Source: Candidatus Helarchaeota archaeon
Lineage (GTDB): Archaea; Asgardarchaeota; Lokiarchaeia; Helarchaeales; RDOG01
Assembly (NCBI GenBank): GCA_019058315.1
Contig: JAHPZH010000001.1
Span: 407,536-471,535 of the forward strand
Direction: 5' to 3'
DNA: 64,000 nt
How positions within the stretch are numbered: the stretch's first letter is position 1; each line of letters starts with the position of its first letter. Of the stretch, positions 42,675 to 54,504 are shown in pieces. The position numbers and the translations under genes were made by a program. Under the pieces are notes generated by a model that worked only from the letters and a program-made list of their open reading frames with translations, searched no databases and was not told the origin of the DNA.

Positions 42675-43367
42675 TTGACTATCGAAATTAGGTTATCTGG
42701 CTTTCTCTATCTGGTTATCTTGGTTTTACAAATTGTAATGGCAGAGTTTGGTTATATATTAGAACCAAAGCCAAAGCATTATGACTCAGACGCTCAGTTA
42801 CCAAAGATTAATAAAAATCCAAAAAAATTTAAAATAAGCATCATATTAGCGCTTATAGAACATTTTAGCGTCATTATATTAGCTATAATGTTGTTTATTA
42901 CTTTTAATCCTTATAATATAATACTTGGAATCGTTTGGACCATCTTTCGATTAGCAGAAGGTTCGATCCAAGTCTATATTGAAAAGGACTACTGGGGAGT
43001 TCTCAATATAGCTAGACAATACCGAGTTGCTAGTGGTACGGAAAAAGATTCATTGAGTGATTCATATCGCAACATTCTTCAAACAAAAAGCTCTAGATTC
43101 GCATTTGGAATGATCTGTTGGGGCATTGGTACACTTGCATATTCAATCATGCTTGTTACCTATGAAGTAGTACCCCTAATTATAGGATGGTTAGGAATTG
43201 TTGCCAGCATTCCCATTGGCTTGGTTAATGGGATAAAACTTATAAAATCTAACTTTAAAGGCTATGAAGTTCTATCTTCCATCAGTGGTCTATTGGCAAT
43301 TATATTTGAAATAATCATCGGAGTATGGTTATTATTTTTTCAAAGGACTCAAAACCTATTTTTTTAG
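42675..43367 (+). CDS. DUF4386-family membrane protein
   Basis: R.SGFLYL, FR.AEG, VP..IGWLG..AS, FE.IIG.WL. Confidence 0.8.
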   Translation: MTIEIRLSGFLYLVILVLQIVMAEFGYILEPKPKHYDSDAQLPKINKNPKKFKISIILALIEHFSVIILAIMLFITFNPYNIILGIVWTIFRLAEGSIQVYIEKDYWGVLNIARQYRVASGTEKDSLSDSYRNILQTKSSRFAFGMICWGIGTLAYSIMLVTYEVVPLIIGWLGIVASIPIGLVNGIKLIKSNFKGYEVLSSISGLLAIIFEIIIGVWLLFFQRTQNLFF

Positions 43368-43388
43368 AAGATTTTCCAAGAAATTTTC
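43363..43388. repeat. 26-bp imperfect direct repeat, copy 2
   Basis: tttagaagattttccaagaaattttc; overlaps the DUF4386 stop codon. Confidence 0.6.
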
Positions 43389-43419
43389 AAAATAAATAAG
43401 CCTGGCAGATTTATATAAT

Positions 43420-43779
43420 TTAAATCTCACCAATAGTTCCAATATTCAATTTATTTTTCCTAAAATATTTTTCTATTTTTCTTGCGAGTTTTTTATATGT
43501 TTTTCCACGATATTTTATCTCATAACTATGTACTTCATAATTAAAGAGTATCATGATACCATATGTCTTATTTAACGGGTCTTTATATTTAATTAAGATT
43601 TCATTTTGCCCAACTTTTACCATCCGCTTAATTTTAGTCCTAGCTTGAGAGATTACAACCCCAAATTCTCCCTTATATAATGCGTCAACAAAATTTTTAA
43701 CAAATTCTTCCAATTGTGTCAACTGCGATAATATTGATAATATTGAAAACGTTTTATTGAAATAAATATCATAAGTCAA
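43420..43779 (-). CDS. Hypothetical protein
   Basis: 119-aa ORF filling the gap between two + strand genes. Confidence 0.55.
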   Translation of the reverse strand: MTYDIYFNKTFSILSILSQLTQLEEFVKNFVDALYKGEFGVVISQARTKIKRMVKVGQNEILIKYKDPLNKTYGIMILFNYEVHSYEIKYRGKTYKKLARKIEKYFRKNKLNIGTIGEI

Positions 43780-43882
43780 ATATCGATTTTAGACTTATTA
43801 TTTTAAAACCTTTAATGGTGTTTATTTATCAGTTAACGATTAGATTTAATTTAATTCACTCCGCTTTTTGGAAGTTTAATTT

Positions 43883-45133
43883 TTGGGAATCTACAAATTA
43901 AAATGTTTATCTTGTAATCGAATTCTAGAAGATGATTATACTCTTAAATGTAATAGTTGTGATGCATTAATAAGGACAGAATATGAAAAAAAACAATTAG
44001 AATTAAGAAATGATCTCCCAGGTATATGGAAATATATAGATTGGCTTCCGGTAAGTGACTATTTCGAAACTGATTCTTCGATAAAAACATATAAGAGCGA
44101 AGCATTAGCAAAAGAACTTGGTTTATCCAATTTATATATTTCATGTGCTGGATACTTTCCTGAGATTGGCGTTAAAAACAAAGCTTGCTCATTTAAAGAA
44201 CTAGAGTCAGTTCCTACTTATCAACGGATGAAAGAAAAAAAGAAAAAAGGTGTTATTTTAGCCTCTGCTGGAAATACTGGCATTAGTTTTGCCTATATGT
44301 CTAAAATAACAAAAATTCCGGCTATAATTGTAATTCCTGAATCCGCCAAACTTTTAGTTCCTTATCCTGAAATAGATACTGTTGTATTAATAGCAGTTAA
44401 AGGTAATGATTATTTTAATGCTATTCATTTAGCATCAAGGATTAATAAAGAAGGATTTGTTCCTGAGGGTGGTGCAAGAAACATAGCTCGAAGGGATGGA
44501 ATGGCATTGGTTATGATAGATGCTGCGTTTACTTTAAAAACACTTCCAGACCATTATTTCCAAGCTGTTGGAAGCGGTACTGGAGCTGTCAGCGTCTGGG
44601 AAGCCACTCTACGTCTTCTTGATGATGGAAGGTTTGGAAAGAAAAAAATCAAACTACATGTATCACAAAACCATCCCTTCAATCCGATCCATAATGCTTG
44701 GGCCAGAAAAGCAAAAGAAATAGATATAGATAAAGATATGTTGAATGCTTTTGAAAATATAAGTAAGGTTAAAGCTACGATGTTGACTAATAGAAAGCCT
44801 CCTTATTCTATTGTAGGTGGAGTATATGATGCTTTAATTGATACCAATGGGGAAACTTATGCAGTTACCAATAAAGAGATAGATTCTGCTGCTAAACTAT
44901 TTTATGAATTAGAAGGTATTGATATTCCAGCCGAGCCTGCAGTTGCAGTAGGGTCTTTAATACAAGCAATTGAGCAAAAAAAGGTTAATCTTTCCGATAA
45001 AATTCTACTTAATTTAACCGCTGCTGGATTTGAGAGACTTAAAAAAGATCATGGTTTATACCCATTAAAACCAACATATGTAGCAAAAAATGAGCATATT
45101 CCAATTGAAGAACTACCTCTAAATGATTTATAG
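43883..45133 (+). CDS. Cysteate synthase (PLP, threonine-synthase family)
   Basis: CSFKELE, ASAGNTG, EGGARNIARRDGM, DHYFQAVGSGTG, LTNRKPPY. Adjacent to comDE. Confidence 0.9.
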   Translation: MGIYKLKCLSCNRILEDDYTLKCNSCDALIRTEYEKKQLELRNDLPGIWKYIDWLPVSDYFETDSSIKTYKSEALAKELGLSNLYISCAGYFPEIGVKNKACSFKELESVPTYQRMKEKKKKGVILASAGNTGISFAYMSKITKIPAIIVIPESAKLLVPYPEIDTVVLIAVKGNDYFNAIHLASRINKEGFVPEGGARNIARRDGMALVMIDAAFTLKTLPDHYFQAVGSGTGAVSVWEATLRLLDDGRFGKKKIKLHVSQNHPFNPIHNAWARKAKEIDIDKDMLNAFENISKVKATMLTNRKPPYSIVGGVYDALIDTNGETYAVTNKEIDSAAKLFYELEGIDIPAEPAVAVGSLIQAIEQKKVNLSDKILLNLTAAGFERLKKDHGLYPLKPTYVAKNEHIPIEELPLNDL

Positions 45134-45145
45134 GATTTTAAAAAT

Positions 45146-46279
45146 ATGGAACCAGAATTGGAAATTATTGAAATATTAAAGAAAAACCAAATAGATCTCG
45201 CTCTTTCTGTTCCTTGTGCAAAAATAAAAAATTTACTCATTTTAATATCCAAAGAATTTAAGCATATCCCACTAACCAGGGAAGAAGAGGGGGTTGGAAC
45301 TGCTGCTGGTGCTTATTTAGCTGGTCTAAAACCTGTATTATTAATTCAATCTGGAGGAATTGGTAATTCTATAAATGCACTTATGTCATTATCCAAAGCT
45401 TATAGTCTACCCTTACCTATTATAATATCTTGGAGAGGAATACATAAAGAAAAAATTGAAGCACAAAAACCTATGGGTCAACATCTAATTAGAATATTAG
45501 AAGGTTGTGAAATACCTTATCTAAAAGTGGAAACCCCTAAAGATATAGAGAAAATAGATCAAGCAATTAAAGATAGTTTTAAAATTGAAACTCCTTATGC
45601 AATATTATTATCTCCAAGAATTTGGGAATCTAGCAAATTAAAACCTCAGACCATTGAATATCCGAAAAGAACTTCTGCTCTCTCTCTCACTTATAATAAA
45701 ATCTTAAGACCACCGACTTTAACTCGATATGAGGCTATTCAAACTCTCGTGCCTTATCTAAAGGATAAAATTATAATTTCAAATATTGGAATCCCAAGCA
45801 AAGAATTATATCATCTTCTCGAACAACCCTCAAACTTTTATATGCTCGGAAGTCTTGGTATGGCATCATCAATTGGTCTCGGTGTAGCATTAGGAACCTC
45901 GAAAAAAGAAATAATTGTTCTTGATGGTGATGGAAGTCTGTTATATAATCCAAATGCTTTATGTATGATTGGAAATTTAAGTCCCAAAAATCTTACAATA
46001 ATAGCCTTGGATAATGGTACGCATGGTTCAACTGGTGATCAAATTACTGCTGCATATAATCAAGTAGATTTAGAATTACTAGCAAGAAGTTTTGGAATAA
46101 AAAATACTGCAAAAGTCTATATTAAAGATGAAATAACAATTATGATCGAAACATTACAACTAGGTCCTCGATTTATTCATGCCATCCTAAAACCAGGAAG
46201 AATGGATGTAAAAAATATTCCTTTATCACCTGAGACTATTAAAAAAAGATTTATGGACTATTTACGGATGCATGGTTAA
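45146..46279 (+). CDS. comDE: Fused sulfopyruvate decarboxylase alpha/beta
   Basis: SVPC, LTREEEGVG..AGAYL, GIGNSINAL, SWRG..E.I.AQ.PMG; NIG.PSKEL, NFYMLGS.G, DGDGS, DNG.HGSTG.Q. Confidence 0.93.
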   Translation: MEPELEIIEILKKNQIDLALSVPCAKIKNLLILISKEFKHIPLTREEEGVGTAAGAYLAGLKPVLLIQSGGIGNSINALMSLSKAYSLPLPIIISWRGIHKEKIEAQKPMGQHLIRILEGCEIPYLKVETPKDIEKIDQAIKDSFKIETPYAILLSPRIWESSKLKPQTIEYPKRTSALSLTYNKILRPPTLTRYEAIQTLVPYLKDKIIISNIGIPSKELYHLLEQPSNFYMLGSLGMASSIGLGVALGTSKKEIIVLDGDGSLLYNPNALCMIGNLSPKNLTIIALDNGTHGSTGDQITAAYNQVDLELLARSFGIKNTAKVYIKDEITIMIETLQLGPRFIHAILKPGRMDVKNIPLSPETIKKRFMDYLRMHG

Positions 46280-46282
46280 AAG

Positions 46283-46909
46283 ATGGAAAAAGAAAAAATT
46301 AAAAAAAATGATTTTATTAAAGAAATATTTAAAGACCCTCGAATTCCGGAAGAATTGGGCATAAATAGATGTATACAATGCGGAAATTGTTCAGCTTCAT
46401 GTCCTGCAGCTAGACATTCATCATATAGACCTAGAAAGATTATGCAAGAAATCCTTCTTGGAGCAAGGAATAATTTACTTGAAAATGAAGATATTTGGTT
46501 ATGTTATTCTTGTTTTTCATGTAATCTAAGATGCCCTAGAAATAATAATCCTGGCGTTATAATTCATGTTCTTAGACAATTAGCCTTAAAAGAAGGCCAT
46601 GGTTGGGAAAAAGTCGTTAAATTTAAATTTTATTTAGAAAGTCTACGAGATTCAGGTATAGGATGGTCTACCAAAGCTCAAACTATCGAATATTTTAAAG
46701 AATTAGAAAATGATTGGGTCGAAATCATAAAAAATATGCCTGAAGTTTTAAAAGAATTAAGTATGAATCCAAATAGTCCACGCGAATTGCCAAAAGAAGC
46801 AAGAGATCAAATAAAGAAAATTTTAGAATTAGCAAATATCAATGAGGATATTTCGGAATTTGAGGAGAAAGAAGAGAAAATTCAAAAACAGAAAAATGAA
46901 GAAAAATAG
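46283..46909 (+). CDS. hdrC: Heterodisulfide reductase subunit C
   Basis: CIQCGNCSASCP and WLCYSCFSCNLRCPR. Confidence 0.9.
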   Translation: MEKEKIKKNDFIKEIFKDPRIPEELGINRCIQCGNCSASCPAARHSSYRPRKIMQEILLGARNNLLENEDIWLCYSCFSCNLRCPRNNNPGVIIHVLRQLALKEGHGWEKVVKFKFYLESLRDSGIGWSTKAQTIEYFKELENDWVEIIKNMPEVLKELSMNPNSPRELPKEARDQIKKILELANINEDISEFEEKEEKIQKQKNEEK

Positions 46910-46918
46910 GTATATAAA

Positions 46919-47857
46919 ATGGAAAAATTAATTCCCGATAAAGGTTACTATTTATTTAAAAGTTGTATGTTAGGATTAGAATATCCGGGGGCAGAAGAAT
47001 CTGTAAGATTCATTTATAAAAAATTAAATCTTGATTTTTTCGATGATCCCAGACAAAGTTGTTGTAGTGGTATGGGTATTAATCTCGATTTAGTATCTCC
47101 TTTAATAACAACTGTTTTAGCGGCGAGAAATTTTACATTGGCAAATCAATCAAATCATCCTTATATGACTACACTATGTTCTACTTGTTATGGAGTACTA
47201 AAAGAATCCTGTGAATGGATAGAAAAAGATATAAAATTAAAGAATAAGGTTGAGGAGATATTACAAAAAGCTAATTTGAATTTTAGAATGGAATATATGA
47301 AGCCTGAGAATGTATTTCACGCAATCGAAATATTTTATAAGTGGCGAGACAAAATTTCAGAACTTGTTAAATTAGATTTTAGTGGTATTAAAATTGCTAC
47401 ACATCATGGCTGTCATTTTTTCAAATTATTTCCTGATCAAGTAAAAGGAGATCCAGAAAATCTAACAATTATGGATGAATTGGTAAAATCTGTTGGTGCT
47501 GATTTAATAGTTTGGTATCCTGAAAAAAATTCATGTTGTGGTTCTGGCTTTCGCCACCGAATTATGAAAACCGAACTTGCTAATAATGCAGGTTTTGATA
47601 AATTAAAATCTGTAAAAAATGCAGGCGCAGAGATCTTGGTTAATATGTGTCCAATGTGCCACTTTCAATTTGATAGATATGAAAAAATCTATGAACAATT
47701 AAAAAATAAGGAATTGGGATTAATTCATTTGAATATTGCACAACTTATAGCTCTTGCATTAGGAGCAGATCCATATAAAATTGTTGGAATCCAAACACAT
47801 TCTATAAAGGTTGAACCTTTATTAAAAAAACTCGATATATTAATTAAGAATAAATGA
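46919..47857 (+). CDS. hdrB: Heterodisulfide reductase subunit B
   Basis: Two CCG domains: SC..CCSG..CSTC and HHGCH..CCGSG..CPMCHFQFD. Confidence 0.93.
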   Translation: MEKLIPDKGYYLFKSCMLGLEYPGAEESVRFIYKKLNLDFFDDPRQSCCSGMGINLDLVSPLITTVLAARNFTLANQSNHPYMTTLCSTCYGVLKESCEWIEKDIKLKNKVEEILQKANLNFRMEYMKPENVFHAIEIFYKWRDKISELVKLDFSGIKIATHHGCHFFKLFPDQVKGDPENLTIMDELVKSVGADLIVWYPEKNSCCGSGFRHRIMKTELANNAGFDKLKSVKNAGAEILVNMCPMCHFQFDRYEKIYEQLKNKELGLIHLNIAQLIALALGADPYKIVGIQTHSIKVEPLLKKLDILIKNK

Positions 47858-47873
47858 TTAGAAAGTTATTACC

Positions 47874-50222
47874 ATGTTTGAAATTTCCCCTCGTGTTGGT
47901 GTTTTCATTTGTAGATGTGGTCGAAACATAGCTGAAATTATTAATTTAGATGAGGTTATTCAGGAAATTAAGAAAGTTAAAGATGTAGTTTGTGTTGAGA
48001 CCAATACATTTATGTGTTCACTTCCTGGTCAAAGTCTTTTACAGAAAAAAATAATGGAATTAAGTTTAAATAGAATAGTGATTGCTGCTTGTAGTCTAAA
48101 AGTTCATAAAACTATGTTTGAAACCGTTCTAGAAAATGCACGTTTAAATCCTTATTTACTTGAAATCGCAAATATTCGTGAACAAGATTCGTGGGTGCAT
48201 CAAACAAACTCGAAAGAAGCAACTCAAAAAGCTATCTCCTTGATAAAAGGTGCTATTCATAAAGCAAGATATCTACAAAGTTTAGAAAATATACGGCAAC
48301 CAGTAAAGAAAAATGTGTTAGTCGTAGGTGGTGGGATTGCAGGGATATCTGCTTCAATATCATTAGCAAGAAGCGGGTATAATGTCTTTTTAGTAGAAAA
48401 AGATGTTACGATAGGTGGTAATATGGTAAAGTTAGTTAAGACTTACCCAGATGAAGAATGTGCGATGTGTACAATTTCTCCCTTGATGACAGAAATAGCT
48501 CAAAATCCCAATATAACACTCTATACAGGAGCTGAATTAAAAGAATGGACAGGTTCTGTGGGCAATTTTAATGTAATAATTCAACATAATCCAAGATATG
48601 TAGATATAAATAAGTGTCTTGCATGTGGAAATTGTGAAGTAGTTTGTCCAACAACAGTCACAGATGAATGGAATTGTAATTTAGGTACCAGAAAAGCTAT
48701 TTATAGAAGTTTCCCAGAAGCAGTTCCAAATGCATTTGCTATTGATGAAAAAAATTGTTTATTTTTAAAAAGTTCGAGAGAATCTAAAGTTTGTCAAAAA
48801 TGTGTTGATGTTTGTTCTGGTCATGCAATTAATTTTAATGAAAAACCAACGACGACAACTCTTGAAGTGGGATCCATTATTGTAACTACAGGACATAAAG
48901 ATTATGATCCCAGTTTAAAACCAAATTTAGGATATAACCGATACAAAGATGTAATAACTATAATGCAATGTGCTCGATTATTAGATATTAATGGACCTAC
49001 AAAGGGAATATTTAAACGCCCTTCAGATAATCAAATACCTAAAAGAGTAGTTTTTCTTCAATGTGTAGGTTCTCGAGATGAAAAACCATCTGGACATAAA
49101 TATTGTTCCAAAATTTGTTGTATGTCCGCTTTAAAGTATGCGAGTATGATTAAAAAAGGCTATAATACTGATGTTGTAATTAGTTATACCGATATAAGAG
49201 CCACAGGATTTAATGAAAATTATTATAGATATGTTCAGGATTTAGGAGTTCGATTTATAAGAGGTAAAGTTTCGGACGTATATAAAGAGAATGGAAGTTT
49301 GACAGTAAGATTAGAAGACACTTTATCTGGCAAAATGTTGGAATTAGAGACGGATTTGATTGTCTTATCCACAGCATTAGAACCTTCATTAGGCACCGTT
49401 GAAATTGCAAAAAATTTAGGTCTATTAACAACAGAAGACAGTTTTGTTAAAGAAGATCATTTGAAACTACGCCCAATAAATACTAGTATCCAAGGTATTT
49501 TTGCAGCAGGAACTGCTCTGGGACCTAAGGACATAGCAGAATCTGTTTCACAAGCAAGTGGTGCCGCTAGTAAAGTAGAGGAAATCCTAAGAAAAGGTAT
49601 TATTGAAATTCCTCCCGAAATAGCCTTTGTCCACCCTGAAAAATGTACTGGTTGTGGTAGATGTATCGAAATATGTCCCTATCAAGCAATTGAAAAAATA
49701 AATGAAATAATTTATATCAAACCTCTCGTTTGCACTGGTTGTGGTGCATGTGTTCCTGAATGCCCCGAGAACGCTTTAGATCTAACACATTTAACCGAAA
49801 GGCAACTTTTATCTCAAATTGATGGGATTCTATCTGATAATACCATGAAACCAATTATCCTTGCATTTTTAGAAAGTAGCATGGCTTATAGTGCAGCAGA
49901 TAATGCTGGAATAAAAAAAATCCAATATCCTCCTAATATAAGAATAATAGCAGTCCCTTCTACAGCCTATATTAAATTAGAACATATTCTTTATGCATTC
50001 GAAAAAGGAGCGGACGGCATCTTATTAGGCGAAGGTCCTGAAGAAGGACCTGTGGGTAAAGTTATCCCAATTATGGATGAAAGAATTAAAAAATATGCCA
50101 AAAAATTGGAGGAAAAAGGAATAGATCCATTCAAATTATGGTTTAACAAAATATATATAACAGAAGGGGAGAAGCTAGTTGATCTTTTTAAAACCTTTAC
50201 AGATTCATTGGATGAGGATTAA
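47874..50222 (+). CDS. hdrA: Heterodisulfide reductase subunit A with C-terminal MvhD-like domain
   Basis: RVGVFICRCG, NIREQ.SWVH, VVGGGIAG, QCVGSRD..YCSKICC, ferredoxin motifs, YPPNIRII..AFEKGADG. Confidence 0.95.
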   Translation: MFEISPRVGVFICRCGRNIAEIINLDEVIQEIKKVKDVVCVETNTFMCSLPGQSLLQKKIMELSLNRIVIAACSLKVHKTMFETVLENARLNPYLLEIANIREQDSWVHQTNSKEATQKAISLIKGAIHKARYLQSLENIRQPVKKNVLVVGGGIAGISASISLARSGYNVFLVEKDVTIGGNMVKLVKTYPDEECAMCTISPLMTEIAQNPNITLYTGAELKEWTGSVGNFNVIIQHNPRYVDINKCLACGNCEVVCPTTVTDEWNCNLGTRKAIYRSFPEAVPNAFAIDEKNCLFLKSSRESKVCQKCVDVCSGHAINFNEKPTTTTLEVGSIIVTTGHKDYDPSLKPNLGYNRYKDVITIMQCARLLDINGPTKGIFKRPSDNQIPKRVVFLQCVGSRDEKPSGHKYCSKICCMSALKYASMIKKGYNTDVVISYTDIRATGFNENYYRYVQDLGVRFIRGKVSDVYKENGSLTVRLEDTLSGKMLELETDLIVLSTALEPSLGTVEIAKNLGLLTTEDSFVKEDHLKLRPINTSIQGIFAAGTALGPKDIAESVSQASGAASKVEEILRKGIIEIPPEIAFVHPEKCTGCGRCIEICPYQAIEKINEIIYIKPLVCTGCGACVPECPENALDLTHLTERQLLSQIDGILSDNTMKPIILAFLESSMAYSAADNAGIKKIQYPPNIRIIAVPSTAYIKLEHILYAFEKGADGILLGEGPEEGPVGKVIPIMDERIKKYAKKLEEKGIDPFKLWFNKIYITEGEKLVDLFKTFTDSLDED

Positions 50223-50311
50223 ATAATTTTTTAAACTAATTTTTAAACCATAAAAACTTAAGAAGATTGTATTCTAATTATTACCAAATTTTTATTAAAA
50301 TGTGATAAAAG

Positions 50312-51247
50312 ATGGTAAGACCTTTAAAATATCTCTTAATTAAAGAATACGAAGAAACTAAGCCTGAAGAGTTGCCAAACCTTCCACTTGAAGCTATTGA
50401 AGGAATTGTTGAAGAGGATATGATAGGATTTAAAGAAATGGATATTAATAACCTTACTGAGCTTTCCGAAGCAAAATTTTCAAAATTAAAGGGAAAAGAA
50501 CTTAGTGATTATAAGGTTAATAAGGGAATTTCTTATGCGATAGATATAATGATTCAATCAAACGAACCCGGTGTTCATGAAGAAATTATGCCCCTAGATG
50601 AGTTACTAATTAGAGAATACGAACCCACTCCACCGAAAGATTTAGCTGATTTACCTACAGTTGCTATTGAAGGCGTAGCTCCGAGAGGTGAGAAATTATT
50701 AAAAGAAATTGGTATAAAAACAGTCAAAGAATTTGCAGATTCAGATATAAAAAAGATAAAAACATCAAAGCTCTATGATTGGGAAGCAGAGAAATATTTA
50801 GAATATGCAAGATGGATAATAAATTATGCTGATGAGAAAATTAAGAAGCCAGATACGGAAAATATTGAATTTAAAACTAAAGGAGATAATTTGATCCTTA
50901 CATTCGATAAAACAAAAGAATTCGGTCCATCAGCCACGGGTAAAACGATTATTGTTGCCCATTCTCATGGAGGTCAACGAATTAAGGGGACTGATCTGAG
51001 TTTCGGAATGTATGCATATAAATATCCAACGAAAAAGGCAATAAAACAAAAAAAAGTTAAAGAAATGCAAAATATAGCTATAAAAGTTGCTGGTAATATT
51101 GTAACACTAACAGTTAACATGAAAGAAGATTATGGTTCTTCAGCCTCAGGCAAAAGTTCGATAGTCGCATCATCCAGAGGAAATAAGCTAATTGAAGATA
51201 CTGGGGTGTATGTAGGTTTAAATGTTTACAGGCAAGAAAAGAAATAA
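50312..51247 (+). CDS. Hypothetical protein with two internally duplicated domains (A-A-B-B)
   Basis: LLI(K/R)EYE.T.P..L..LP..AIEG twice; NI..K..G....LT.....(F/Y)G.SA(T/S)GK..IVA.S.G twice. Confidence 0.75.
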   Translation: MVRPLKYLLIKEYEETKPEELPNLPLEAIEGIVEEDMIGFKEMDINNLTELSEAKFSKLKGKELSDYKVNKGISYAIDIMIQSNEPGVHEEIMPLDELLIREYEPTPPKDLADLPTVAIEGVAPRGEKLLKEIGIKTVKEFADSDIKKIKTSKLYDWEAEKYLEYARWIINYADEKIKKPDTENIEFKTKGDNLILTFDKTKEFGPSATGKTIIVAHSHGGQRIKGTDLSFGMYAYKYPTKKAIKQKKVKEMQNIAIKVAGNIVTLTVNMKEDYGSSASGKSSIVASSRGNKLIEDTGVYVGLNVYRQEKK

Positions 51248-51474
51248 ATAAAACAGGGAATAACTTTACTATATGAAATTTTTTTCTCTTTTTTTAGAGT
51301 TTTTTATTTTTAATAGAAAATTAAGTTGTTATAGTCATTTTTTAAATTCTTTAACAAGATTTACATTATAAAAAAAAAGAGATAACATTATTATATTTTT
51401 ATAATATTCAGATTTGGAATTAATCTCGTTGGTATAAAATCTTTAAAACCTGTTTAATAGAAGAGTAGTTAATA

Positions 51475-52743
51475 ATGAAGGAACGAAGTGTTGAAGAAAT
51501 TCAAGAAAAAATAAATGAGGGGAAAGCTAATATATTTACTGCACAAGAATTGTGCGATTTAATTAATAAAGGGGAGAAAATCGATTTTGAGGATATAGAT
51601 GTCATAACTACTGCAACGAAAGGTCTAATGAGTGGGACTACTGCAATTGTTTCATTCAGAGTCTCAGAACCTAAGAAATTCCAAAAAGCAAAGAAAATGA
51701 CTCTTAATGGAATTCCTGCTTATGTAGGTCCATGTCCTAATGAATATCTAGGGGTTGTAGATGCTATAATTTTTGGTACAGAGCATAGTTTAGAAAATCC
51801 CAACTATGGTGGGGGTCACCTATTTCGCGATCTTATTGAAAACAAAGAAATAGATGTTATAGTAGAGACAATTGAAAATATGGAAATAAAAAGTAAAGTA
51901 AAGCTTCAAGATATGGGCTATGCTAAAATGCTTGCAATAAGAAATGCATTTAAAAATTATTTAGCATTTGTGAACCCGACTCATAATCCAGTAAAAACTA
52001 TTTTTTCAGCTACTGATTTTAAAGGTCCTCTTTATGAGGCAACTTTTTGCGGTTGTGGGGCATTAAATCCCATTCAAAATGATCCTGAAATGGAAGTATT
52101 TGGAATAGGAACACCCATTTTAATGAATGGTGCCAAAGGATATATCATAGGGGAAGGTACTAGAAGTACTAAAGAAAAACCGAATTTAACAGCAATTGCC
52201 GATATAAAAAACATGAAACCCGAATATGCTGGAGGATTCATGACTTCTGCAGGTCCAGAAGTAATTAATACATGGGCAGTCCCCATACCTATTTTAAATG
52301 AGAAAATTTTAAATAATGTAAAGAAATTAGACAAAGATATTCATTTAACAATAGTGGATGTAGTTGGTAGAGGTCCTCTCGGAGAAACCACATATGGAGA
52401 AGTTTGGAAAAAGGGATATTCAATAGATTTTAAAGAAAATGGCTGTAAAAATTGTCCTAATTTAGAAACATGTAAAATTGATGAAATTTGCCCCACTAAT
52501 GCATTCGTTAAAGATAAAGGAATCGATAAATCTCTTTGTTTTAATTGTGGAACGTGTTTGATTCATTGTGTCCAAGACGCCTTCGAAGGAAATATGAGCA
52601 CAATTAAGCTTGGTAATAAAGAAATTCCAATAGTGTGCCGCCAATCTGATAGAATGGGTGCAATTAAATTAGCTGATGAACTAAAAAACCTTATTTTAAA
52701 AGATAAATTTCCGTTAGTCAAACCTACTGATAAAATTTATTAA
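51475..52743 (+). CDS. comF: Methanogenesis marker 16 metalloprotein / coenzyme M synthase (ComF-like)
   Basis: DVITTATKGLMSGT, GPCPNE.LG.VD, YGGGHLFRDL, GCG.LNP.QNDP, GGF.TSAGPE, ferredoxin CxxC motifs, CRQSDR. Confidence 0.85.
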   Translation: MKERSVEEIQEKINEGKANIFTAQELCDLINKGEKIDFEDIDVITTATKGLMSGTTAIVSFRVSEPKKFQKAKKMTLNGIPAYVGPCPNEYLGVVDAIIFGTEHSLENPNYGGGHLFRDLIENKEIDVIVETIENMEIKSKVKLQDMGYAKMLAIRNAFKNYLAFVNPTHNPVKTIFSATDFKGPLYEATFCGCGALNPIQNDPEMEVFGIGTPILMNGAKGYIIGEGTRSTKEKPNLTAIADIKNMKPEYAGGFMTSAGPEVINTWAVPIPILNEKILNNVKKLDKDIHLTIVDVVGRGPLGETTYGEVWKKGYSIDFKENGCKNCPNLETCKIDEICPTNAFVKDKGIDKSLCFNCGTCLIHCVQDAFEGNMSTIKLGNKEIPIVCRQSDRMGAIKLADELKNLILKDKFPLVKPTDKIY

Positions 52744-52833
52744 ATATGCTTAATTACTCCTAAATATAAACGTTAAGGACTTAAGTGAAGAAAATAGCTC
52801 TAATTATAATAAATTTTATGGAGAAATACAAAT

Positions 52834-53256
52834 TTGCTAACAAATGAAGAATTAAAAAAATATATAAAAAAAATTTCTGATTATATGAAAAATGCTGATG
52901 CCCAACAATCCCAAACTTGTGGTTATTTAAGAGATCTTTCGAATGTTTTTCATTCAATTTCATTTCTTAAACAAAATGGTAATTATGGCATGATGGATTC
53001 AGCAATTTTCCAATTTCAATCAACACTTTCACAAGTACCTCAAGACCTAAAATCTGAAGTTAGCCAAAAACTAAGGGAACTAACCTTAAATTTTTCTCGG
53101 CAATTAGATACAATCGTTGAAAACATTACAGACCTGGAAAATGGAAGCATTGATATTTTTAAAGCTATTGCTAACTTATTCCTATGTGTTGAAAACTTAT
53201 TTAGATTAAAAGATTCAATTGGATCCTATCCAAGACCTGCACCCTTTCCTATGTAA
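52834..53256 (+). CDS. Helical hypothetical protein, tandem paralog 1
   Basis: 140 aa, TTG start after GGAG, ends SYPRPAPFPM. Confidence 0.75.
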   Translation: MLTNEELKKYIKKISDYMKNADAQQSQTCGYLRDLSNVFHSISFLKQNGNYGMMDSAIFQFQSTLSQVPQDLKSEVSQKLRELTLNFSRQLDTIVENITDLENGSIDIFKAIANLFLCVENLFRLKDSIGSYPRPAPFPM

Positions 53257-53316
53257 TTCGTTATTATAATAAGAAGGATAGTTAGAATAATATAAGAAAC
53301 AAAGAGGATTTTTAAT

Positions 53317-53739
53317 TTGCTGACAAATGAAGAATTGAAAGAAAATATGCTAAAAATAGCAGATTATATGAAAAAACCTGATGCACAAAATTCCCAAATA
53401 AGTGTGTATTTAAAAAATCTCTCAAATACTTTTTATGCGTTATTAATTGTTAAAGATAACGGAAATTATGCTATGTTACAAGCTGTGATTATTCAATTTC
53501 AAATGACACTTCAACAAATGCCTCAAGATATAAAATCAGATATTAAACAAAAACTCAGAGAATTATTTCTAAATTTTTCTCGAGAATTAAGTATTATTGC
53601 TGAAAATTTAGCACAGTTAGATAGCGGAAATATGGAAATTTATAAAGCTACTTCTAATTTATATCTTTATGTTAATAAATTGTTTAAATTAAAAGAATTA
53701 ACTGTTTCCTATCAAAGACCTGCACCTTTTCCTATGTAA
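53317..53739 (+). CDS. Helical hypothetical protein, tandem paralog 2
   Basis: 140 aa, TTG start after GAGG, ends SYQRPAPFPM. Confidence 0.75.
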   Translation: MLTNEELKENMLKIADYMKKPDAQNSQISVYLKNLSNTFYALLIVKDNGNYAMLQAVIIQFQMTLQQMPQDIKSDIKQKLRELFLNFSRELSIIAENLAQLDSGNMEIYKATSNLYLYVNKLFKLKELTVSYQRPAPFPM

Positions 53740-53769
53740 TTCCTTTTTTCTAATTAGAGAGCGTTCAAA

Positions 53770-54504
53770 TTGGAATTTTATGAAGAATTTATTGAAAAAT
53801 ATGATAAGTTAGTCTCTTGGGAGAATAGAGTTACAAGAGAATCAAATTTCTATAAAACAGTTTTTTCTAATAATGATGTTAAAACAATATTGGACTGTGC
53901 TTGTGGAACAGGACATCATGTTATTATGTTAAAACAAATGGGATATGATGTCAAAGGGTCTGATATTTCTCCTGCAATGATTCAAAAAGCTAAAAGTAAT
54001 TCTGATAAATTAGGTTTGAAGATTCCATTAAAAATCTCTGATTTTAAAAATATTTCTAAAATATATAGTGAACAATTTGATGCAGTAATTTGTGTTGGCA
54101 ATTCTTTACCACATTTGTTTACAAACAAGGAAATTTTTGAGGCTCTTAGCGAAATATATAAAGTTCTAAGGCAAAATGGTATTTTTATTTTGGAGCAAAG
54201 AAATTATGATAAATTAACTAAGTTCCAAACTCGGTTTTTTCCAGTTACTTTCAGAGAAGACGAGATTTTTTTCTATGTCCTGGATTATTTTCCAAAAAAA
54301 ATTGTTTTTAATGTAATTGATTTAGAAATTAATTCCAAAAAATTTCATGTTTTTACTACAGAATATAATCCAATCAAAAAAGAAAATTTAGTAGAATTAT
54401 TAGAAAAATCTGGATTTAAGAACTTTAAATACCATCAAGATCATGAATTCAGCGAATTTAATATAGAAAAAAGTGATAATTTAATTATAATTTGCAAAAA
54501 GTAG
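53770..54504 (+). CDS. Class I SAM-dependent methyltransferase (glycine/sarcosine N-methyltransferase-like)
   Basis: ILDCACGTG, GSDIS..M, FDAVICVGNSLPHL, QRNYD. Confidence 0.88.
   Translation: MEFYEEFIEKYDKLVSWENRVTRESNFYKTVFSNNDVKTILDCACGTGHHVIMLKQMGYDVKGSDISPAMIQKAKSNSDKLGLKIPLKISDFKNISKIYSEQFDAVICVGNSLPHLFTNKEIFEALSEIYKVLRQNGIFILEQRNYDKLTKFQTRFFPVTFREDEIFFYVLDYFPKKIVFNVIDLEINSKKFHVFTTEYNPIKKENLVELLEKSGFKNFKYHQDHEFSEFNIEKSDNLIIICKK

Follow-up and report, generated by a model that had tools for sequence, protein, structure and literature searches.

What is a heterodisulfide reductase (Hdr) doing among the genes for coenzyme M (CoM) synthesis of an Asgard archaeon? To our knowledge, neither an electron donor nor a sulfur donor is known for the ComF step of archaeal CoM synthesis, and we know of no resolution of the thiolation step in coenzyme B (CoB) synthesis. 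The locus lies in a 64,000-nucleotide stretch of DNA (the window) and contains the following features.

43883..45133, + strand: cs, cysteate synthase, which opens the phosphoserine-dependent (type-2) route to CoM; TIGR03844, 508 bits (cut-off 325)
45146..46279, + strand: fused sulfopyruvate decarboxylase ComDE; TIGR03845, 207 bits (cut-off 148), and TIGR03846, 225 bits (cut-off 221.5)
46283..46909, + strand: HdrC, HdrC1-like, two [4Fe-4S] clusters; best match NF041779
46919..47857, + strand: HdrB of the HdrB1-like subfamily; best match NF041780, clade support 100/99
47874..50222, + strand: HdrA of the HdrA1-like subfamily, from the tree, with FAD motif and cluster cysteines
49857..50213, + strand: MvhD-like domain fused in HdrA (PF02662, residues 662-780)
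50312..51247, + strand: 311-aa ORF of unknown function, no family match
51475..52743, + strand: ComF, or methanogenesis marker 16 (MMP16), CoM synthase, a metalloprotein; TIGR03287, 510 bits (cut-off 364)

The preliminary description had noted the tight spacing of the first five genes and marker 16 downstream on the same strand, and the re-checked coordinates are exact: the gaps in cs–comDE–hdrC–hdrB–hdrA measure exactly 12, 3, 9 and 16 nt, and those flanking the 311-aa ORF measure 89 nt (hdrA side) and 227 nt (comF side). One Logan contig, which may derive from the source sample, covers positions 43000-54000 with zero differences. The arrangement goes beyond chance: by a crude estimate, one of the roughly 14 hdrB-like genes would land no more than 6 kb from the genome's only comF with a probability of 0.03, and the gene order recurs in other loci (below). 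Scanning the cluster for promoters and terminators with a bacterial model gave chance level only. The 311-aa ORF has no match in Pfam, NCBIfam or Atlas, its C-terminal part is 56% identical to a protein on contig C2, and it is missing between hdrA and comF in 7 other loci; judged by these comparisons, it is a lineage insertion outside the conserved module.

The host, represented by a metagenome-assembled genome, is a Helarchaeales archaeon with alkyl-CoM reductases (Acr), on the basis of an actin match (E 4e-134), the labels of named close HdrA and HdrB homologues (mostly Ca. Helarchaeota), three acrABG sets and the cfb genes; the first two exclude an ordinary methanogen, an outcome that the preliminary description had named as refuting its reading. 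Its prediction of an Mcr/Acr-type metabolism was borne out by the genome search. One of the three acrABG sets lies on the window's own contig, three McrG proteins exceed the cut-off, and the AcrA proteins, which fall below the McrA equivalog cut-off, are 56-77% identical to Helarchaeales/Hadarchaeota AcrA. AtwA is present, and among the F430 genes CfbD exceeds its cut-off, with the best CfbB and CfbC matches just below theirs. The window itself holds no mcr gene, a profile search agreeing with the earlier observation. Helarchaeota alkyl-CoM reductases have already been published (PMC6478937), and the com genes of Helarchaeota are tallied in PMC12068725 (Table S1); multiple acrABG sets are a shared property, and cs, comDE and mmp16 occur in several genomes. 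Neither the operon nor a link between Hdr and CoM synthesis was found in their searched passages.

The wider inference that CoM genes imply Mcr holds here, with a cs operon, but fails for comF or comDE alone, as MMP16 exceeds its cut-off in 40 of 54 Lokiarchaeia relatives without McrG. Mcr presence among these relatives was scored by McrG; a McrA scan (PF02249) had missed four genomes, and a negative CfbD result in the relatives is given no weight on the same grounds. McrG was found in all seven genomes of the order Helarchaeales.

By sequence, cs, ComDE and ComF constitute the type-2 CoM route, from which CoM production in vivo is inferred. Both cs and ComDE are single-copy in the genome, and the phosphonopyruvate decarboxylase model scores below its cut-off on the ComDE region. 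The protein at 51475 could in principle have been a homocysteine-forming L-ASST (COG1900a) rather than marker 16 (COG1900d), which would have refuted the earlier assignment. However, it carries the MMP16 motifs (PCP Cys87, and CGCG Cys192/194, the Cys95- and Cys202-equivalents) and the inserted ferredoxin domain, lacks the L-ASST Cys54 motif (GAMCSSG), and falls inside the MMP16 clade, which is split from L-ASST with 100% support. A separate L-ASST gene with the GAMCSSG motif is present at C9:183312-184817. Motif, ferredoxin insert and clade thus rule out the L-ASST identity. Cys95 is invariant in ComF and lies outside the residues targeted by the published mutagenesis. No class V aminotransferase was found in the window; candidates occur elsewhere in the genome (e.g., C5:593336-594481), and a transaminase encoded elsewhere is assumed to perform the second step, cysteate transamination. 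A cysteate synthase profile scan of the genome contigs collection returned only three Thermoplasmatota loci. PMC12068725 describes a type-2 locus in Methanosarcina acetivorans (cs MA3297, comDE MA3298, MMP16/comF MA3299) whose three genes match those here in kind and order, with ComDE fused in both and the transaminase of M. acetivorans unlinked, whereas the window has hdrC-hdrB-hdrA between comDE and comF, in an Asgard host with divergent Acr.

Which Hdr is embedded here? Best matches and trees set it apart from both the canonical and the HdrA2 type, in a separate subfamily typified by Methanosarcina HdrA1B1C1; any ferredoxin:heterodisulfide activity is putative. HdrC scores 153 bits against NF041779 (cut-off 350) versus 93 against canonical TIGR03290 (cut-off 160), HdrB 360 bits against NF041780 (cut-off 450) versus 182 against canonical TIGR03288 (cut-off 345), and HdrA 788 against its model in the curated NF041778-80 set (cut-off 1400), so that all three subunits remain under the NF041778-80 cut-offs, which Methanosarcina-type loci pass. 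In the trees, HdrB shares one clade with the Methanosarcina HdrB1 type (support 100/99), outside the clade of six paralogues from its own genome, and HdrA clusters with Methanosarcina- and Methanobacteriales-type HdrA, separate from three genome paralogues (100%, FastTree). Orthology to the M. acetivorans proteins is indirect, M. acetivorans HdrC sharing a 90% cluster with the hdrC of locus L144.

The cofactor sites of this subfamily vary by group. The eight cluster cysteines of HdrC are invariant. The window HdrB keeps all ten non-cubane ligands (C16, 48, 49, 87, 90; C165, 206, 207, 244, 247), as do 8 of 8 Helarchaeota-type copies, whereas in the non-Helarchaeota members of the subfamily one or more of these ligands is always missing (0/23 outside the subfamily), fused forms lacking N-terminal ligands and Methanosarcina and Methanobacteriales forms a C-terminal one. 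A uniform loss of the CoB-binding cluster across the subfamily was rejected on this pattern. HdrA retains the FAD motif and the cluster cysteines, except for Asp105 at one usually-Cys site. In its MvhD-like domain, each of the five conserved cysteines is replaced (E667, M670, S696, E720, G725), and this tail is Cys-less in 21/21 aligned subfamily HdrA, in contrast to two canonical paralogues. Such a domain should be unable to hold a [2Fe-2S] cluster, and thus the usual hydrogenase/formate-dehydrogenase entry appears lost.

We note the main likenesses to three known systems. HdrA1B1C1 of M. acetivorans (MA3128-3126), named as a ferredoxin:CoB-CoM heterodisulfide reductase, belongs to the same HdrB and HdrA clades, shares the EEC[A/G]MC-type motif and the Cys-less MvhD-like tail, and is co-regulated there with com genes; the window HdrA, however, is 42-43% identical, the gene order is C-B-A rather than A-C-B, the genes lie inside a com operon, and in the C-terminal CC pair, whose first position is Thr in Methanosarcina, the window retains Cys there. 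HdrA2B2C2 of M. acetivorans (PMC5296606) likewise has a fused MvhD-like domain, but that of HdrA2 binds [2Fe-2S], whereas the window domain lacks all five cysteines and the window HdrB scores much higher on NF041780 than on TIGR03288. Canonical HdrABC-MvhAGD (PDB 5ODC) has the HdrA domains and cluster motifs in common with the window, as well as the two CCG motifs of HdrB, whereas the window has no functional MvhD, no hydrogenase genes in the cluster, and scores that do not reach TIGR03288 or TIGR03290.

The distribution of the subfamily bears on its role. The order cs-comDE-hdrC-hdrB-hdrA-comF recurs in eight distinct loci (the window and seven others), all apparently Helarchaeota. Among 400 Asgard genomes, the subfamily HdrB was found only in the three that have cs and comDE, in a phylum-wide search that scored the best five candidates per genome, with full rescoring for four genomes (G001, G002, G004, G005); no copy was found in four of the order's seven genomes with Acr (completeness 82-94%). 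Since all seven have McrG, the subfamily tracks CoM synthesis, not Acr, which counts for a role in that synthesis; against it, single-operon membership explains the co-occurrence within Helarchaeales. An HdrABC has been proposed to regenerate the heterodisulfide in Helarchaeota (PMC6478937), and the three Acr sets would suit a catabolic Hdr serving alkane oxidation in this way. However, this idea, like that of a passenger acquired with the com genes, is very unlikely given the four Acr-bearing genomes in which the subfamily was not found and the methanogen and methanotroph comF genes that it also flanks.

Outside Asgard archaea, comF adjoins the subfamily hdr in 10/19 fused-HdrCB loci, which have no adjacent hdrA, and in 7/42 Methanobacteriales-like loci; the hosts include ANME-1/Methanophagales, Hadarchaeales (Hadarchaeota) and Methanobrevibacter, the linked loci use both the cs and the ComAB routes, and gene orders vary. 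No comF was found near Methanosarcina subfamily loci (0/12), and the com genes stand without an adjacent hdr in G121, a Hadarchaeon with Acr, and at two loci of Methanomassiliicoccus. Adjacency to the final CoM enzyme in several distant archaea suggests that this Hdr probably helps build the cofactor; against this, the two deepest subfamily branches both adjoin comF, so that the link may go back to one ancestral event. This link was not found stated in the literature searched, subscription journals being outside its scope. That only a minority of Methanobacteriales-like loci lie near comF speaks against an obligatory link.

Published work on M. acetivorans provides independent data. During CoM starvation, MA3128/3127/3126 (hdrA1C1B1) rose by log2 4.1-4.3 (~17-fold), cs by log2 4.1 and comDE by log2 3.5 (S4 of PMC12068725). 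A study of the hdrA1B1C1 deletion reported total CoM of 16.7 vs 28.2 nmol/mg (41% lower), a reduced CoM fraction of 92.6 vs 82.3%, unmeasurable CoB, upregulated cs and comDE, and growth rescued by added CoM (PMC12713407). Induction and deletion phenotype fit a biosynthetic role. The loss of a recycling enzyme would instead predict unchanged total CoM and more oxidised CoM, the opposite of what the deletion shows. Of the roles proposed in the preliminary description, that of supplying reductant fits these mutant data better than that of reducing CoM disulfides; its broader suggestion of a tie between Hdr and CoM synthesis has gained comparative and published support, with proof still lacking. 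Release of new CoM from a product disulfide was also considered and dropped, the deletion having less total and less oxidised CoM.

A different reading is pool maintenance: drawing on ferredoxin or F420H2, Hdr would reduce the disulfides CoM-S-S-CoB or CoM-S-S-CoM, and it would cluster with com genes as part of a common response to low free CoM. This is reportedly the view of HdrA1B1C1 taken in the 2010 model of Buan and Metcalf. It is also the interpretation of Chadwick et al. 2025. The co-induction of com and ssu genes with hdr on CoM starvation, the SsuA-like transporter genes near some Methanobacteriales-like copies, and the intact catalytic cysteines, FAD motif and HdrA clusters of the window all agree with it. 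However, the mutant's CoM and CoB values run against it, about a dozen further hdrB-like genes are already in the genome, and the non-Helarchaeota subfamily members each lack a non-cubane ligand; we regard it as rather unlikely, if still a serious contender.

A further possibility is that HdrB acts as DsrK does, on a persulfide or trisulfide, and by reducing such a carrier of sulfane sulfur provides ComF and related enzymes with sulfur. The altered ligand sets just named resemble DsrK (bioRxiv 10.64898/2026.08.25.746951). Methanobacterium-type copies lie among cysS, ThiF/ThiS, metY, cysK-like, cysE-like and nifS genes, and CoM and CoB both drop in the deletion. However, the growth defect of the deletion is no worse when sulfide is withheld (10.7 vs 9.6 h) than when it is given (12.6 vs 10.3 h; PMC12713407), the window HdrB retains both clusters, and the Helarchaeota operon has no sulfur-carrier gene, so that sulfur mobilisation seems distinctly unlikely.

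We favour, at about even chances of being right, the reading that the cluster is a de novo CoM operon of Acr-bearing Helarchaeales in which HdrCBA supplies electrons to the ComF step. The subfamily Hdr would be the anabolic redox partner of this step (2-4 electrons, donor unknown), with HdrC and HdrB as the conserved core. HdrB would most likely oxidise existing thiols (HS-CoM, HS-CoB), the direction of electron flow being inferred, and HdrC would hand the electrons on to ComF at its ferredoxin domain, either in direct contact or by way of free ferredoxin; HdrA1, in loci that have it, would contribute a flavin that connects to ferredoxin or F420. The thiolation couple, at roughly -26 mV, lies downhill from the heterodisulfide couple at roughly -140 mV (rough estimates from formation energies). 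HdrB2C2 by itself can pass electrons to and from ferredoxin (PMC5296606), which together with the ferredoxin insert of ComF counts for this route. Against it, Helarchaeota HdrB keeps all ten cysteines, like canonical HdrB, so that ordinary heterodisulfide chemistry is possible for it. The disulfide formed would be the Acr co-substrate in an alkane oxidiser, and CoB thiolation may use the same electron service. The hdrA1B1C1 deletion needs no CoM supplement for growth, not even when sulfide is absent (PMC12713407), whereas the MMP16 deletion is auxotrophic without sulfide; Hdr would thus be an auxiliary booster, not an obligatory partner. More tentatively, the HdrB1 subfamily might be the missing electron donor for COG1900 thiolations (CoM, probably CoB), a thiol:ComF oxidoreductase acting via HdrC, in which case M. 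acetivorans HdrA1B1C1 would be cofactor-biosynthetic rather than energy-conserving; this remains possible, without being the outcome that we expect. The role of HdrA1B1C1 is listed as unvalidated in PMC6019823.

Two cautions follow for genome annotation: not every hdrABC in an alkane-oxidiser genome can be counted as catabolic, and marker 16 is no sign of Mcr in Lokiarchaeia. The operon joins three questions, namely the donor of ComF, CoB thiolation, and the role of Methanosarcina HdrA1B1C1, which has reportedly been a proposal since 2010. As M. acetivorans deletion strains exist, the idea of a biosynthetic role is directly testable. In Asgard alkane oxidisers, as in ANME-1, Hadarchaeota and Methanobrevibacter, comF is physically linked to the type of Hdr that M. 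acetivorans induces on CoM starvation.

The preliminary description had placed six named genes in this cluster, with gaps of 12, 3, 9 and 16 nt along cs-comDE-hdrC-hdrB-hdrA; all of these positions and gaps were confirmed. The cysteate synthase, both ComDE halves and marker 16 (MMP16) pass the curated NCBIfam cut-offs, and co-transcription of the cluster genes is inferred from spacing only. The 3' end of the cluster reads as follows.

50312-51247, 311-aa ORF, unknown, between hdrA and comF, with flanking gaps of 89 and 227 nt
51475-52743, + strand, comF (marker 16)

The C-terminal 140 residues of the 311-aa protein match the tail of a 672-aa protein encoded on contig C2 of this genome (239159-241177) with 56% identity, and the ORF is also covered by relatives in runs X2 and X3. 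Directly 3' of comF, at 52834-53739, stand two tandem 140-aa paralogues, 56% identical and without a family match.

Grouping of the 51475 protein, i.e., the comF product, with homocysteine-forming sulfurtransferases (L-ASST) would have refuted the earlier reading. It clusters instead with MMP16, and its split from the ten L-ASST sequences compared has 100% support. The protein has Cys87 of the PCP motif, a CGCG motif and a ferredoxin insert but not the L-ASST Cys54 motif, and the genome's own L-ASST gene sits on a different contig.

The window is part of a 1.48 Mb contig in a genome of 5.79 Mb and about 30% GC that encodes actin, and the named close homologues of HdrA and HdrB are mostly labelled Ca. 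Helarchaeota. The Acr metabolism predicted from the CoM genes is borne out here by three mcrA, mcrB, mcrG sets, one of which shares the window's contig and lies some 250 kb away from the CoM cluster. Scores of the alpha subunits stay under the McrA equivalog cut-off, and their identity to the alpha subunits of same-order genomes and of an Acr-bearing Hadarchaeon is 56-77%; the genome also encodes AtwA, CfbD, CfbB/C-like proteins and an Mcr glutamine methyltransferase. A compact cluster at C12:11288-17342 (L182) holds cfbE-like, cfbD, cfbC and cfbB genes with the Mcr glutamine C-methyltransferase (TIGR04014 above cut-off), and ARAGORN calls a tRNA-Sec gene at C5:127141-127232. Acr metabolism in Helarchaeota is already known biology (PMC6478937), and for four Helarchaeales Table S1 of PMC12068725 already counts cs, comDE and mmp16; the paper's text does not mention Asgard or Loki. 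The gene counts of the window genome agree with the row JABXJV01 sp019058315 of that table, which may be the same genome.

However, comF alone does not imply Mcr: of 54 class-level relatives without an McrG match, 40 have an MMP16 that exceeds the cut-off. ComE-type genes occur in 23 of those relatives, and cs was found in none of them. In a quick tree, the MMP16 of McrG-less relatives falls among the copies from Helarchaeota operons, and in most of those examined comF lies beside a VOC protein, a ThDP enzyme and an SDR. At loci L031 and L036-L048 (Mcr-less Lokiarchaeia and the Acr-bearing Helarchaeales genome G001), the ThDP enzyme and SDR stand before or after comF, with a VOC protein usual and a class III aminotransferase occasional; this ThDP enzyme is acetolactate-synthase-like (305 bits against the Xsc model, below cut-off). 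Such neighbourhoods hint that sulfoacetaldehyde or thiols are handled in the absence of Mcr.

The window HdrB scores 360 against NF041780 versus 182 against the canonical model, and a careful tree places it in one clade (100/99) with Methanosarcina, Methanobacteriales, ANME-1-like and Hadarchaeota proteins, with six paralogues of the window genome outside. The Methanosarcina members stand in hdrA-hdrC-hdrB operons and pass NF041778 and NF041780, and one HdrC from these loci falls in the same 90% cluster as a protein of M. acetivorans; by this indirect match we take them to be HdrA1C1B1 (MA3128-3126). An MreA-family regulator lies divergently upstream of Methanosarcina HdrA1-type operons. In the MvhD-like domain fused to the window HdrA, none of the five conserved cysteines is kept, and the tail lacks them in 21 of 21 aligned subfamily HdrA. 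The window HdrA is thus not HdrA2-type and is without the usual hydrogenase entry. Whereas HdrA1 has been described as lacking an MvhD extension (PMC6019823), the Methanosarcina type (L129, L144, L148, L152, L162; 802-810 aa) does possess a degenerate, Cys-less MvhD-like tail. In HdrB, all ten ligands are kept in 23/23 outside sequences and 8/8 Helarchaeota-type copies. One or two non-cubane ligands of the N-terminal motif, described as CoB-binding (bioRxiv 10.64898/2026.08.25.746951), are lost in 21/21 fused HdrCB forms, and the first Cys of the C-terminal CC pair is lost in Methanosarcina, Methanobacteriales and bacterial forms. A second subfamily HdrCB of this genome (L080, C11:75907-77435; NF041780 448 bits, 'TC' motif) has no hdrA; upstream are HGD-D dehydratase-like genes and a BcrAD/BadFG activator, and a CysK-like gene is about 5 kb away.

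The order cs-comDE-hdrC-hdrB-hdrA-comF, without the 311-aa ORF, recurs in the Helarchaeales genomes G003 and G006 and at five further loci. McrG is present in 7/7 genomes of the order. Among 400 Asgard genomes, window-type HdrB was found in just three, namely those with cs and comDE. This HdrB type tracks the CoM pathway, not Acr, although the gain or loss of a single operon as a unit would produce this co-occurrence too. At most Helarchaeota-type loci of the other family (L029, L030, L073, L074, L114), the gene after comF encodes a DUF362 Fe-S-type protein; its homologues in the window genome are unlinked.

Among 80 subfamily loci counted from metagenomes, many of them short, comF was found at 10/19 fused-HdrCB, 2/2 Helarchaeota-type, 7/42 Methanobacteriales-like, 0/12 Methanosarcina and 0/5 high-GC loci. 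Arrangements include hdrCB-comF-comA-comB, hdrCB-comF-cs, hdrCB divergent from comF-cs-comDE-GNAT, and comA-comF-hdrC-hdrB-hdrA facing comED, and the named members beside comF are ANME-1/Methanophagales, Hadarchaeales and Methanobrevibacter. The upstream CoM route and gene order vary while comF remains the neighbour, and fused HdrCB loci have no adjacent hdrA. Counter-examples, with com genes lacking an adjacent hdr, do exist. The hdr-comF link may be ancestral to the subfamily and not repeatedly gained.

Methanobacterium-type copies lie among sulfur-assimilation genes (L111, L117-L120, L124-L126, L143, L145: cysS, GMC oxidoreductase, ThiF, ThiS, metY, cysK-like, cysE-like and an SsuA-like binding protein). 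At high-GC (0.70) loci, whose host is probably bacterial (L151, L155, L157, L160, L164), subfamily hdrB-hdrC stands by cysK-like, cysE-like and cysteine-desulfurase-like genes. Com clusters of Hadarchaeota and one of ComAB type (L085, L087, L099, L171, L172, L184) conserve a 140-aa GNAT acetyltransferase, with 42% identical homologues in the window genome at C5:1144900, near another hdrCB, and C3:346977.

CoM-starved M. acetivorans induces MA3128, MA3127 and MA3126 by log2 4.1-4.3. This response equals that of cs and ranks among the strongest, and the authors read it as heterodisulfide recycling (PMC12068725). Deletion of hdrA1B1C1 lowered total CoM from 28.2 to 16.7 nmol/mg, shifted its reduced share from 82 to 93%, left CoB unmeasurable and upregulated cs and comDE, and growth was rescued by added CoM, not by extra com copies (PMC12713407). 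In that paper, lower CoB biosynthesis is noted in the results, but the discussion concerns oxidative stress. We infer that a block before C-S bond formation, in a step common to CoM and CoB, accounts for this pattern better than a defect in recycling would. Recycling by Hdr remains possible but doubtful. Sulfur mobilisation by Hdr appears unlikely, since the deletion defect is no worse without sulfide. The viability of the deletion strain shows that Hdr is auxiliary; a catabolic or passenger Hdr is given very little credence.

We favour, with moderate confidence and without any mechanistic step having been shown, Hdr as the electron supply for ComF, most simply through thiol oxidation at HdrB relayed via HdrC. 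ComF demands two electrons if its sulfur comes as sulfide and four if it comes as sulfane sulfur, the sulfur species being unclear. The thiolation couple is roughly estimated, from formation energies, to be near -26 mV, and on this estimate thiolation could be driven by CoM/CoB thiols, whose couple is at about -140 mV. These thiols would be oxidised at HdrB, and the electrons would pass via HdrC toward ComF, which has a ferredoxin domain; electron exchange between HdrBC and ferredoxin is possible without HdrA (PMC5296606).

In the literature searched, no statement of the hdr-comF operon, of the subfamily identity with HdrA1B1C1 or of the Cys-less MvhD tail was found. None of the individual parts is new, and Acr and com genes of Helarchaeota have been recorded before; with the operon, two open questions can be put to the test in strains that already exist.
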